Source: Octopus vulgaris (lineage: Eukaryota). From it: a stretch of DNA of 64,000 bases. Position 1 is the stretch's first letter. The number at the start of each line of letters is the position of its first letter. Position numbers and translations under genes: made by a program. The notes under the pieces are model-generated. The model made no database searches. It had not been told where the DNA came from and saw nothing but the letters and a program-made list of their open reading frames with translations. The stretch is taken from assembly GCA_951406725.2 (NCBI GenBank), contig OX597829.1:23622001-23686000 (forward strand). The letters are read 5' to 3'. Shown piece after piece: positions 3,551-64,000 of this stretch.

Positions 3551-3868
3551 ATTATTGCTGTGGGAAAAAGACATACTTGTATGTCTCCATTAGAAGATGT
3601 TTTTGGTATCAGGTCTAGATTGGTGTGAAGTGGCTAGGCTCTCTATGAAAGGTAATTGGGTGCCAGTTGTTAGGGTGGAATGAAAGGTGGTACCATTTGC
3701 ATAAGAGAAAGTGTAGTTAAAGGTTATGACAAATAAAATGCTAATATATGGAAGGAAGAACTTGTGGAACAACTCAAAATCTTAAATCACAGAACTCACA
3801 AAGAGAACTCCACTAGCCGGTGTCACAATGATGCAATCACATCACCATCATCATCATTTAATGTCTTT

Positions 3869-18939: not shown

Positions 18940-19290
18940 ATGTTGCATGGTCATTGGCCTTGAATACTGAAGACTTGCAAAGACTAGAAAGAAAGGAAGT
19001 TAGCATGTTCTGGATGTGCAACATTAGTGTGCATAAATAGCAGAGTATAAATGAGCTGAAAGAAAACCTGGGTATAAGAGGAATCAGGTGCAGTATACAA
19101 GAGAGGAAGGATTTGTTAATATGGACATGTGATGTGTATGGAAGATGACTACTGTACAAAGACAGTGCTGAGCACCCTATGTTAGTGGTACTTGTGGAAG
19201 AAGGAGACCAAGGAAATTGGGATGAAGTGGGGAAGGGGCTGACAGGACTGCAGAAGACCTGACCACCTATGTACCCATGGCAAAACATAT
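18940..19290 (+). mobile_element. Old RTE LINE 3' relic
   Basis: WMCNISVH...LKENLGIRGIRC...YGHV, homologous to 20141-20458. Confidence 0.7.
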
Positions 19291-19499
19291 TGAAACAAAG
19301 GTAGTGTTTAGAAGTGGAGATATTTTGAATACTTGTAGGTAGATTTGGTCAGCAGAAACAGGAAGATGTCTGTCATATATATATATATATATATATATAT
19401 ACCGGAGTAAACACATAAATGTGAAACAAGGTGGAAAAAAGAGTACTCAAATACCAGTGGTAGAGTAATATGCTTTATTTTAAGCAGCAGAAAATTCAA

Positions 19500-19549
19500 C
19501 AAAATCTGTTACTCTGAGTTTCTCGTTGCCGTTCATCAGACAGTTTTTG
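19500..19549 (-). ncRNA. Minimal type-I hammerhead ribozyme (mirror copy)
   Basis: Reverse complement of 19601-19650. Confidence 0.8.
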
Positions 19550-19600
19550 CTAGAATGGAACATATATATTAATTGAATTAATATATATGTTCCATTCTAG

Positions 19601-19650
19601 CAAAAACTGTCTGATGAACGGCAACGAGAAACTCAGAGTAACAGATTTTG
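19601..19650 (+). ncRNA. Minimal type-I hammerhead ribozyme
   Basis: Stem I CAAAA-a-CTGT / ACAG-a-TTTTG; core CTGATGA; stem II CG-GCAA-CG; GAA; stem III ACTC-A-GAGT; cleavage triplet GTA ending at 19640. Confidence 0.8.
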
Positions 19651-19676
19651 TTGAATTTTCTGCTGCTTAAAATAAA

Positions 19677-19707
<31 letters not shown>

Positions 19708-19709
<2 letters not shown>

Positions 19710-21180
19710 CGTAGAAGTGGCTGTATGGTAAGTAGCTTGCTTATGAACCACATGGTTCCAGGTTCAGTCCCACTGTGTGGCACCTTGGGCAAGTGTCTTC
19801 TACTATAGCCTCGGGCCAGCCAAAGCCTTGTGAGTGGATTTGGGAGACGGAAACTGAAAGAAGCCCATTGTATATATGTGATAGCTTCCGTTATCTAGGT
19901 GACCAAGTCAGTAGTGGGGGTGGGTGCGCTGAAAGTGTAACTGCTAGAATAAGAATAGCCTGGGCAAAGTTTAGGGAGCTCTTACCTCTGCTGGTGACTA
20001 AAGGCCTCTCACTCAGAGTAAAAGGCAGACTGTATGATGCATGTGTACGAACAGCCATGCTACATGGCAGTGAAACACGGGCTGTGACTGCTGAGGACAT
20101 GCGTAAGCTCGCGAGGAATGAAGCCAGTATGCTCTGATGGATGTGTAATGTCAGTGTACATACTCGACAGAGTGTTAGTACCTTGAGAGAAATGTTGTAC
20201 CTAAGAAGCATCAGTTGTGGTGTGCAAGAAAGACGATTGTGCTGGTATGGTCATGTGGCGAGAATGGATGAAGATAGGTGTGTGAGAAAGTGCCAATCCC
20301 TAGCAGTTGAGGGAACCCGTGGAAGAGGTAGACCCAGGAAAACCTGGGACGAGGTGGTGAAGCACGACCTTCGAACTTTAGGCCTCACTGAGGAAATGAC
20401 CAGCGACCGAGACCTTTGGAAATATGCTGTACGTGAGAAGACCAGGCAGGACAAGTGAGCCCAGCCCACTTATGCATGCCTTTCCTCCCTTGGACACAAA
20501 GACCTGTTGAGGCAAGCGAAGTCGATATAGAACCTCATCCGATGACAGGCACCCATGCCAACCCCCTTTGCTTGTGAAGACATGTTGGGGCAAGCGAAAT
20601 CGAAATCGAAATCGAATTCAACCAGCCAGGACCCCTGGACTGGTGGTACGTAGAAAGTACTATCTGACTCGTGGCCGATGCCAGCGCCACCTCGACTGGC
20701 TTCCGTGCCGGTGGCATGTAAAATGCACCAATCCGACCGTGGCCGTTGCCAGCCTTGCCTGGCACCTGTGCAGGTGGCACGTAAAAAGCACCCACTACAC
20801 TCACGGAGTGGTTGGCGTTAGGAAGGGCATCCAGCTGTAGAAACATTGCCAGATAAAACTGGAGCCTGGTGCAGCCTTCTGGCTTCCCAGATCCCCAGTC
20901 GAACCGTCCAACCCATGCCAGCATGGAGAACGGACGTTAAACGATGATGATGATGATGATGATGATGATGTTTGTGTGTCTGTGTTTGTCCCCCCAACAT
21001 CACCTGACAACCGATGCTGGTGTGTTTATGTCCCCGTAACTTAGCGGTTCAGTAAAAGAGACCGATAGAATAAGTACTAGGCTTACAAAGAATAAGTTCT
21101 GGGATCGATTTGCTCGACTAAAGGTGGTGCTCCAGCATGGCCGCAGTCAAATGACTGAAACAAGTAAAAGAGTAAAAGAG
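19708..21180 (+). mobile_element. SINE A split by an RTE insertion
   Basis: SINE head at 19708-19878 and tail at 20969-21180. Confidence 0.9.
19879..20968 (+). mobile_element. 5'-truncated RTE LINE (RT C-terminus, 3' UTR, GAT tail)
   Basis: DSFRYLGDQ, ARIRIAWAKFREL, VRTAMLHGSET, one in-frame stop, WYGHVARM, GTRGRGRPRKTW. UTR has GTGCCGGTGGCACGTAAAA repeats and GGCGTTAGGAAGGGCATCCAGC. Tail-only copies at 4184-4400, 21445-21680, 30740-31065, 33865-34070, 35730-36020 and 39070-39277. Confidence 0.92.
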
Positions 21181-30436: not shown

Positions 30437-30621
<185 letters not shown>

Positions 30622-31134
30622 GGTCCCGGGTTGAGTTGGGGTTAACCACAGTAAATAAGGTACTCAATACATAGCAGAGTAAATTAAATATATATATATA
30701 CATACATACACATATACATACATACATTTATAAATATATATCATCATCATCATCATCATTGTTTAACGTCTGTTTTCCATGCTAGCATGGGTTGGACGGT
30801 TCGACCGAGGATTTGGGAAGCCAGAAGGCTGCGCCAGGCCCAGTCTGATCTGGCAGTGTTTCTACGGCTGGATGCCCTTCCTAACGCCAACCACTCCGTG
30901 AGTGTAGTAGGTGCTTTTTACGTGCCACCTGCACAGGTGCCAGACGAGGCTGGCAAACGGCCATGATTGGATGGTGCTTTTTACGTGCCACCGGCACAGA
31001 GGCCAGTCAGGGTGGCGCTGGCAATGGCCACGTTCGGATGGTTCTCTTACGTGCCATCGGCACTATGTATAAATTTAACTGAATGAGATAAAAATCCAAG
31101 GCTGTGAAAGATTTCAGAACATTTATAAAGAGAA

Positions 31135-41236: not shown

Positions 41237-41845
41237 CCGGCAGGACAAGTGAATGCCTGGCAAGACAAGTGACCTGGCAGGACAAGTGACCCGGCAGGAC
41301 AAGTGAGACCATAACCCATGGTCTCTACCTGGGATGTAGCCAGTCCACTTATGCATATCTTTCCTTCTTGGGACACAAAACTCTACTTGTGAAGACCTGT
41401 TGAGGCAAGTGAAAATCAAAATCAAAATCAATCAACATCAAATGGAAATTGCAACTGTGATACCAATGCTGGTGGCACGTAAGAGAACCATCCGAACATG
41501 GCCGTTGCCAGTGCCACCCCGACTGGCTTCCATGTCGGTGGCACATAAAATGCACCATACGATCGTGGCCATTGCCAGCCTCGCCTGGCCTCCGTGCCGG
41601 TGGCACGTAAAAAGCACCATCCGATCGTGGCCGTTTGCCAGCCTCGTCTGGCACCTGTGCCGGTGGCACGTAAAAGCACCTACTACACTCACGGAGTGGT
41701 TGGCATTAGGAAGGGCGTCCAGCTGTAGAAACATTGCCAGATCAGACTGGGCCTGGTGCAACCTTCTGGCTTCCCAGACCCCAGTTGAACCGTCCGACCC
41801 ATGCTAGCATGGAAAGCAGATGCTAAACGATGATGATGATGATTA
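41237..41845 (+). mobile_element. RTE 3' end with a four-fold stuttered ORF terminus
   Basis: GGCAGGACAAGTGA (the RQDK* end of the 19879-20968 ORF) occurs four times, one copy with a mismatch, followed by the 3' UTR and (GAT)n. Confidence 0.88.
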
Positions 41846-54214: not shown

Positions 54215-55000
54215 ACTGGCAGAAACGTTAGTACGCCAGGCGAAATGCTTAGCGGTATTTCATCTGCCACTATGTTCTGAGTTCAAATTCCGCCTAGGTC
54301 GACTTTGCCTTTCATCCTTTCGGGGTCGATTAAATGAGTACCAGTTACGCCCTGGGGTCGATGTAATTGACTTAATCCGTTTGTCTGTCCTTGTTTGTCC
54401 TCTCTGCGTTTAGCCCCTTGTGGGTAGTAAAGAAATAGGTATTTCTTCTGCCGTTACGTTGTGAGTTCAAATTCCGCCGAGATCAACTTTGCCTTTCATC
54501 CTTTCGGGGTCGATTAAATGAGTACCAGTTACGCACTGGAGTCGATGTAATTGACTTAATCCGTTTGTCCTCTCTATGTTTAGCCCATTGTGGGTAGTAA
54601 AGAAATAGGTATTTCTTCTGCTGTTACGTTCTGAGTTCAAATTCTGCCTAGGTCGACTTTGCCTTTCATCCTTTTGGGGTTGATAAATTAAATACCAGTT
54701 ACGCATTACTCCAAATTTCTGGTCTTATGCCTTTAATACAGAGGATTATTATTATTATTATTATTATCATTATTATTAAGGTGGTTAGCATGCTGGGCAA
54801 AATGATTAGCTGCATTTTGTCTGTCTTCACATTCTGAGTTCAAATTCTGTTGAGGTCAACTTTAGCTTTCATCCTTTTTTGGGGTGGGGTGGGGGATTGA
54901 TAAATTACGTACTAGTGAACCACTGGGGTCGATGTAACTGACTTAGCCCTCTCCCCCGAAAATTCAGGCCTTGTGCCTTTAGTAGACAGGATTATTATCA
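54215..55000 (+). mobile_element. SINE B concatemer
   Basis: Three units joined at AAGAAATA|GGTATTTC, plus an older fourth copy. Confidence 0.9.
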
Positions 55001-62776: not shown

Positions 62777-64000
62777 TAAGCTAGTTTATATTTTTCTAAA
62801 AACCTTAATTTTCTAGATTGTCATCTAGGCATGTACTAAGTGCACCAATTATTTTCTATAATCTGGATATAGAAACTGAAGGAATCGAAGTAGTTGTCTG
62901 CAGTTATCCTCTTTCTCTTTGATTTTCAGAGACATTCACCTCAGCAGGGCAGCTGATCACTATGATGGTACATACTTTTCTTGTTTATTTGTAAGTTGTA
63001 GAAATTTGCAGTTTGTAGAAATTTTGACGGAAATTTCCACCAATATTCTTTGTGTTGATATTTCTTTGTGTATTCAGTAACAGGAGGATTCCTTATATTT
63101 ATTCCAGGTCAATCTTTTCCCCGATGACATTGTATACTCTTTTAGCAACATCATCATATTGCATTGGGAAGTTGTACCATGGTGATATTTTTCGGCAGAT
63201 GTTGATAACTGATGTAGCCAACATTTTCGGCTACATTTTGGGGTTCTAAAAGCTTCGTTGTCTTTTTATCTATTAGATATTCTGTAACGGCCTCCTCCTG
63301 GAAAAGCATAATCACTGAAATGTGATGTGATGTAGCAGTCACGTGTCTAAGAAAGGTTGCACTTCATGACGATATTAATGTCATGTTTTGTCTTTATGAA
63401 ACATATCCATGTATAACCTTTTTCCATATGTTGAGCATTTTACAGCTTTGAAGTATGTTAGAGGTATGTATGGGTGGTTATGTAAATCTTGTACATAATA
63501 TTTAGGCCAGCAATATTCTTTCTGCCAACTCTGTTGGTGCTGTAGCAAACCAATTGGGTATGTCAATGTGGCCTCCCATAGTTCTTTTAAATATACATAT
63601 TAATGAATTTCAGTAGAAACTCAACCTTTTGTACCAGTATCCAACTACTCAGCCTGTTCCAAATTCCTCCCCATTAAGTAGTTTGCTTACAGCTACGGAG
63701 AAGTTTCGGGCGAGGGGATGAGTGCGTGTATTTTACTATCGATGTTTGTACGCTATTCTTTCGTAACTGTATTTAGCCACTTTCTTTTCATTCCAGATTT
63801 TAGACCAAAATGATTTAAGATTTTTAGAAGAGCTTTCTTAACAATAATATTTTCTTCCTCACCTTGCGATGTAATGCTTGTGATTTAGAAGCAAACTTGT
63901 GATTTATACTGTCTCTCAGTTATTATTTTACGATAACGAAGTTTTTCGCTCTGCGTCAACGATAATGAAGTTTTTCGCTTAGCATCTACGATAATAAAGT

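Follow-up and report, generated by a model that had tools for sequence, protein, structure and literature searches.

Inverted truncated copies, tails and a bias towards microsatellites are established traits of Penelope-like elements (PLEs; PMC8557442, PMC3846280, PMC11167929; here and below, as far as the consulted parts of each source go), and nearly all families of the Hydra clade target (TA)n (PMC8557442). The Hydra-clade elements nearest to the locus described here (Hydra-2_Amil, Hydra-2_Ajap and Penelope-3_HM; PMC8557442) share with it this target, a type-I hammerhead near the 3' end with an ACUC-N-GAGU stem III, a stem II that is often closed by a non-standard pair and, in consensus ends, a hairpin after the hammerhead. 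Penelope-13_HM is listed with an inverted, 5'-truncated copy and, like the locus, has a hammerhead on either strand (PMC8557442, Files S1/S2). EN+ PLE insertion units such as Pen2a_Av (PMC3846280) and PAc (PMC11167929) likewise stand head-to-head, with a junction palindrome and a tail at one end. In vitro, the protein of the Poseidon element PAc cleaves AT-rich DNA on both strands and extends each of them, and reverse transcription starts at two internal RNA sites bounding the tail, with a stem loop involved in initiation; ribozyme cleavage depends on the protein and is not needed for in vitro insertion, and the later steps of insertion were left unvalidated in that study (PMC11167929). The minimal PLE hammerheads of Cervera and de la Pena (2014, PMC4209133) are also of type I, with a palindromic, weak stem III suited to dimers, and the same paper notes solo truncated copies and opposite-strand pairs, the latter 100-700 bp apart in Schistosoma. 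Non-LTR retrozymes, which are short, non-coding and PLE-derived and carry type-I hammerheads, are head-to-tail tandems with one hammerhead per unit (bioRxiv 10.64898/2026.07.22.740005).

The locus lies in a 64-kb stretch of DNA that was analysed as a whole (the window), an animal-type genome sequence rich in microsatellites and dispersed repeats. A left arm (19473-19574, minus strand) and a right arm (19576-19677, plus strand) are complementary at 102/102 pairs around a central G19575, exactly as a sequence-only reading had described them by eye; the first mismatch is pair 103 (19472 G / 19678 T), and an alternative repeat call gives arms of 107 nt at 99%. Tracts of (TA)n called by TRF border the palindrome on both sides (19375-19401, part of the target site, and 19678-19707). 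The earlier reading had treated the 277-bp span 19401-19677 as one fold-back, which holds for the arms but not for the whole, because 72 bp (19401-19472) prolong the minus-strand arm alone. The order of parts inside (TA)n is a tail at a single end, an inverted 5'-truncated pLTR copy and a directly adjoining, tail-less 5'-truncated pLTR copy. This palindrome is a known insertion form of PLEs, two head-to-head 5'-truncated copies of which one is tailed, and both of its hammerheads are just copies of the one pLTR motif. The insertion is very probably a dead, doubly 5'-truncated copy of a high-copy PLE, most likely of the Hydra clade, and the locus is most likely without function.

The Penelope-like origin with an inverted pLTR copy that had been proposed is borne out and can be narrowed, in its ORF-bearing relatives, to the Hydra clade, with the 72 bp as the PLE tail. 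The accompanying idea of a retrozyme, in the strict sense of the term, fails, since the copies are partial and head-to-head, without a head-to-tail tandem, and so cannot yield unit-length RNA; nor is there support for an element distinct or surprising in kind, given that Penelope-13_HM (PMC8557442) and opposite-strand hammerhead pairs (PMC4209133) are already in print. The locus differs from described insertions in its proportions. The two copies overlap by 7 nt rather than the 15 bp of Pen2a_Av (PMC3846280), both are cut to ~105 nt, unlike the units of Pen2a_Av and PAc, and the tail measures 67-72 bp compared with 30-40 bp in the literature (PMC3846280, PMC11167929) and is made of non-coding 5' sequence that includes a conserved hairpin, the tails of PAc and Pen2a_Av lying instead within the start of the ORF. 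In contrast to the Hydra-clade elements, no ORF is present. No further copies of the insertion were found in the window by blastn. The two arms show 0 changes in 204 arm sites, an upper bound of ~1.5% divergence per site that presumes no conversion keeping them alike, and the insertion is probably young, as had been suggested.

All parts of a type-I hammerhead were located where the sequence-only reading had placed them. In the plus-strand motif (19602-19649), stem I pairs 19602-19610 with 19641-19649 (8/9 pairs), the core comprises CUGAUGA (19611-19617), a GCAA loop (19621-19624) and GAAA (19628-19631), stem III is a quasi-palindrome (19631-19639) and cleavage is predicted after 19640 (19640/19641); everything is mirrored in the minus-strand motif (19501-19548, predicted site between 19510 and 19509). 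The ribozyme had been called intact, and the type-I core (CUGANGA / GAAA / UH with three stems) is indeed complete, but stem II, just 2 bp long, has A.A in place of G10.1-C11.1 or the usual closing pair, whereas the hammerheads in PMC4209133 have a long stem II with a conserved G10.1-C11.1. We therefore use 'intact' of the motif, and self-cleavage is a putative activity. Across 25 motifs the closing pair of stem II was U.U in 14, G-C in 6, G.U in 3, U.G in 1 and A.A in 1, the window's own, and A.A occurred in none of the 26 published Hydra rows of File S2 as read by eye in the consulted part of PMC8557442; Hydra-clade motifs tolerate a mismatch at this pair. Position 19627 varies within the host family between A, U (12-27% of depth) and G (23-35%). 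An AATAAA said to follow each hammerhead is present at 19671-19676 and, mirrored, in the other arm, but it is not a family feature; it was rejected as a conserved poly(A) signal, occurring in 2/39 hammerhead instances, both in the window.

A loose hammerhead pattern matched twice in 64 kb, both times in the arms, against 0.12 expected, the two matches being one sequence and hence not independent. Scored with a covariance model of 15 relatives from outside the window, both arms reached 41.7 bits and the next best site 13.9, a result that is partly circular in that the relatives were found using the window's stem III letters. The Rfam scan did not recover the motif: 0 matches reached the gathering score, and none of 44 weak ones was to a hammerhead family. 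The stems covary among relatives: in the 25 motifs, 64/75 cells of stem II and 88/100 of stem I were paired, above all 5000 shuffles, and in the 15 aligned relatives, whose kinship inflates covariation, 93.3% of cells were paired with 15 changed on both sides and 0/500 shuffles as high. A TA-rich run (19563-19587) flanks the centre and is a candidate two-way TATA-like site, of the sort suggested for a rotifer pLTR (PMC3846280).

Computed folding gave the hammerhead as a monomer -0.3 kcal/mol and an ensemble probability of 2.5e-5, self-pairing of stem III between molecules -7.4 kcal/mol, and the entire insertion -178 kcal/mol on either strand, with every growing transcript prefix already paired. 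Because the antisense arm would be transcribed first on both strands, read-through RNA would bury the ribozyme, and the earlier suggestion that a read-through hairpin could inhibit cleavage holds on paper: the ribozyme is predicted to be sequestered in any such RNA, from either side (-178 versus -0.3 kcal/mol). This fold, and core letters that show no variant at >=4% among contigs, would suit a selected regulatory cassette in which the ribozyme is silenced by its own antisense or serves as a source of edited or diced RNA. We consider this very improbable, because the locus is one of very many copies with repeats on both flanks, its geometry is the usual PLE insertion product, its closing pair is the rare A.A, its monomer hammerhead hardly forms, most non-core letters are equally invariant and so give no sign of selection, and transposition of PAc is independent of cleavage (PMC11167929).

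Relatives were gathered with a core plus stem III pattern, which returned 33 metagenome loci; L005, L013, L024, L026, L030 and L033 were dropped as chance matches without stems I and II, and with duplicates and L027 (contig end) also left out, 25 distinct motifs including the window's were retained. At L027:1-106, the join between an inverted hammerhead and the direct copy falls right on the stem I letters, and a full tail and (TA)n come next. The whole anatomy of the window's insertion recurs in L006 and L037, with an inverted copy bearing the tail hairpin and a direct copy without it, and L034 is a 1.4-kb fold-back. L034-L039 are animal-type Hydra PLE sequence within bacterial MAG records and most likely represent host contamination.

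The link to an ORF was established through L001, in which the motif lies 109 nt behind a GIY-YIG-type ORF. Among loci fetched by the L001 protein alone, 5/6 carry the motif 116-217 nt downstream on the same strand, and the sixth has the same hammerhead type behind an inverted piece; the canonical hammerhead thereby stands 109-217 nt behind EN, on the same strand, in 6 loci, which the window joins by homology only. Full-length homologues of the L001 protein carry RWK, DKT, CxCx4Cx5C, CxxC and CxH and lack DKG in 4/4 inspected, and since RWK, DKT, a CxCX5C linker, CxxC, CxH and a C-terminal EN are Hydra diagnostics (PMC8557442), the ORF-bearing relatives are Hydra-clade PLEs. Pfam named none of 6 Hydra proteins as RT or GIY-YIG, and a PDB search gave 0 matches. 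The ACUC-N-GAGU stem III recurs in 5/26 Hydra rows of File S2, read by eye, and at the end of Hydra-2_Amil stand this hammerhead type and the hairpin (PMC8557442). That the insertion itself belongs to the Hydra clade is a call we make with good, if not complete, confidence from sequence comparison; it draws on ~45 nt of hammerhead and a 20-bit hairpin, with a search restricted to ACUC-N-GAGU stem III, so that another PLE clade sharing this stem is a less probable alternative.

The parent ORF that the earlier reading had envisaged did not come to light: tblastn with 8 homologues found no parent ORF in the window, and exact-family patterns had 0 matches in the genome and viral contig collections. 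Two viral protein matches were disregarded as 19-residue matches. Hydra-1_Obim, the sole octopus Hydra consensus in print (PMC8557442), was rejected as parent, having another hammerhead and 3' end and no listed tail. Neither the six novel Hydra consensi nor the motifs of File S2 include the sequence of this insertion, and the family's letters were not found in the consulted supplement of PMC8557442, in which line breaks may hide a match; we regard the family as a new, uncatalogued member of a known PLE insertion kind.

In the host this family is very abundant. Four sequencing runs were mapped on 19200-19620 of the window with 19365-19408 masked, and all contig counts refer to the best-supported matches listed, beyond which lie 243 loose ends and 5518 pieces. 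Summed contig depth over 19410-19514 was 1e5-2.7e5 in runs X1 and X3, with family depth in X1 at 1.4e5-2.7e5 and unique-flank depth at 12 in X1 and 8 in X3, and family depth in X5 reached 1.7e6; the depth ratio gives an abundance of the order of 10^4, which is not a copy number. Depth was 1.7- and 1.3-fold higher over the tail than over the body and dropped ~100-fold 5' of 19553. At the tail-less end, at least 13 contigs of X3 and at least 34 of X5 among the matches listed stop at 19468 in (TA)n. In run X22, 8 of 12.9 million raw reads matched, all on the tail (19410-19465), with 5 entering (TA)n at 19465, a scarcity at odds with the presence of a 10^4-copy family there. Runs with X22's organism label hold the family at great depth, and a different organism under the label is a guess.

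Contig ends also bear on the junction (19572-19578). Among the matches listed, loose ends with the element's upstream letters occur before 19572 in 1 contig of X1 and 2 of X3, and behind 19578 in 1 contig of X3, so that other letters beyond these positions indicate that the central G belongs to the element and that the copies overlap in the 7-nt quasi-palindrome; the element's upstream sequence is represented here by 4 contigs and 30 letters only. Among the matches listed, no contig or read spans the centre with 31 letters to its left and right, and with the TA tract masked the mapping confirmed neither junction of this locus and showed no empty site.

The tail of the minus-strand copy contains a predicted hairpin (19437-19470) with a 4-5-bp lower stem, a U-rich bulge and a 4-bp upper stem, whose letters were absent from every search pattern. 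Nine MAFFT-aligned copies showed 94.4% of cells paired and 10 two-sided changes, with 0/500 shuffles as high; 19 copies fitted to the hairpin model showed 98.6% and 25 two-sided changes, a fit that leans to structure. In the window's own hairpin the basal G-C has become A-U, with both partners changed. Model R1, built without the window, placed 19437-19470 top in 64 kb (20 bits, rough E 0.012), followed by 30654-30684 (17.4 bits, E 0.056), and a plain hairpin pattern found the same two matches against 0.24 expected. Judged by eye, Hydra-2_Amil, Hydra-2_Ajap and Hydra-1_Crog end with one such hairpin, Hydra-1_Ajap starts with two, and Hydra-1_Obim has no clear hairpin in the consulted part of PMC8557442. 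By these alignments, the covarying tail hairpin is shared by elements across animals. No account of a conserved tail hairpin or of tail-only inserts came up in the literature searched, which did not extend to Repbase, Dfam, subscription papers and figures.

The hairpin follows the hammerhead in 10/39 instances. Nine of the 29 hairpin-less instances could be aligned to a tailed relative, and 9/9 end 1-8 nt before the hairpin; tail-less copies end before it by definition, so that the narrow range and not the order is informative, and ends within ~15 nt of the cleavage site would escape this mapping. The right arm of the window stops 6 nt short of the hairpin's first conserved base (1 nt counting chance TA matches). 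One family (L002, L032) has two hairpins, the second following 49 nt behind the first in L002, and its mappable tailed ends (2/2) lie 5 and 3 nt short of that second hairpin; in the window's family only one is visible, and tail length after the hairpin varies from 21 to 45 nt. That the hairpin positions the initiation sites of reverse transcription is a proposition to which we give somewhat less than an even chance. More tentatively still, Hydra PLEs may begin with two bulged hairpins, reverse transcription starting just 5' of each and setting the termini and the tail; a fold-back would then record both starts, and a tail-only insert one start or the remnant after loss of the unstable arms, in a host family of the order of 10^4 copies.

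Tail-only inserts are present in the window and elsewhere. At 30619-30687 (minus strand), 69 bp between (TA)n tracts, from a related second family, carry the same tail hairpin without a hammerhead, and L039 also holds a tail-only insert. Tail-type hairpins without a hammerhead within 110 nt upstream were seen at L039:3486-3518, L006:491-526 and L037:2557-2587, and L039 has an unrelated hammerhead at 3668 (minus strand), ending in (TA)n. L002:2954-3181 and L032:2084-2337 are ORF-less units of ~300 nt with one or two hairpins and a hammerhead, possibly a non-autonomous Hydra derivative.

For the origin of the fold-back we favour, with moderate confidence, two joined cDNAs. An endonuclease would cut the TA tract, one cDNA would start at the distal site (19401, with the tail) and the other at the proximal site (19677, without it), both would break off after ~105 nt of pLTR, and annealing of the two 3' ends via the 7-nt quasi-palindrome would give the head-to-head repeat. 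An alternative interpretation is that a single cDNA from the tail end snapped back on this quasi-palindrome and copied itself. Such self-priming would account for arms that are alike even where they depart from the family majority, at 19669/19481 and 19645/19505; being carried by both arms, these two departures were present in the template. A second natural palindrome, near 19552, is the fold point of other copies (2 contigs of X3 and 3 mixed contigs of X1 among the matches listed). We nonetheless consider it unlikely, because it requires a 1-nt loop, which is strained in a hairpin, and because self-copying has no clear cause to stop at the tail-less terminus. It is at that terminus, identified in PMC11167929 with a site of RNA initiation, that the right arm ends, whereas junction palindromes have been read as self-priming in PMC3846280. 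A further reading, possible but doubtful, concerns the parent and is compatible with joined cDNAs as to mechanism: a short ORF-less unit, a retrozyme-like non-autonomous Hydra derivative, would have been mobilized in trans and left a truncated copy. The L002 and L032 units, with hairpin(s) and hammerhead within ~300 nt and no ORF between, the fall in depth 5' of 19553 and the derivation of retrozymes from PLEs (bioRxiv 10.64898/2026.07.22.740005) argue for such a parent, but the locus has no head-to-tail tandem, and the depth drop fits ordinary 5' truncation equally well, with an upstream sequence of 30 letters only.

Two readings that deny an insertion of this kind altogether fare worse. Perfect arms and a centre that no read among the matches listed spans could betray an assembly fold-back, to which we give very little credence because the two flanks are unlike, only one end bears a tail, natural features of the family mark both ends and the centre, and independent assemblies (L006, L037) show the same form. 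A miRNA precursor or MITE-like fold-back DNA element is scarcely credible: Rfam miRNA models do match at up to 102 bits, but all Rfam matches lie below gathering scores and, as their alignments indicate, are driven by pairing alone, and the one-sided tail, variable fold centre and retroelement link contrast with fixed terminal repeats. Two joined cDNAs of a PLE remain our preferred account.

The surroundings are repetitive. An unrelated dispersed repeat outside the insertion (19708-19880, plus strand), which we take to be SINE-like, has 12 further long matches (77-90%) in the window, and a literature search gave no identity for it. To either side of the site lie LINE-type ORFs reduced to broken 3' ends (19878-20457 and 18985-19275, both plus strand), for which Pfam named no family and which are presumably RTE-like. 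Tandem arrays lie at 41466-41680 (period 62 nt), 54393-54705 (170 nt) and 63930-64000 (29 nt). A tRNA scan and a bacterial promoter scan of the window found nothing, the promoter models being bacterial and unsuited to an animal.

The mirror-image feature is itself very probably an ordinary PLE leftover, and the tail hairpin offers a testable lead on PLE initiation. How a PLE chooses its two internal initiation sites and how inverted ends form are questions that the hairpin could address, and a covarying hairpin 1-8 nt from mapped termini offers a precise mutational target for initiation. It also serves as a marker for Hydra-type tails and for tail-only inserts missed by repeat annotators, and with a cephalopod host the family would provide a large pool of perfect hairpins for an RNA-editing survey. 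If true, hairpin-set termini would allow PLE initiation and joining to be mapped genome-wide.
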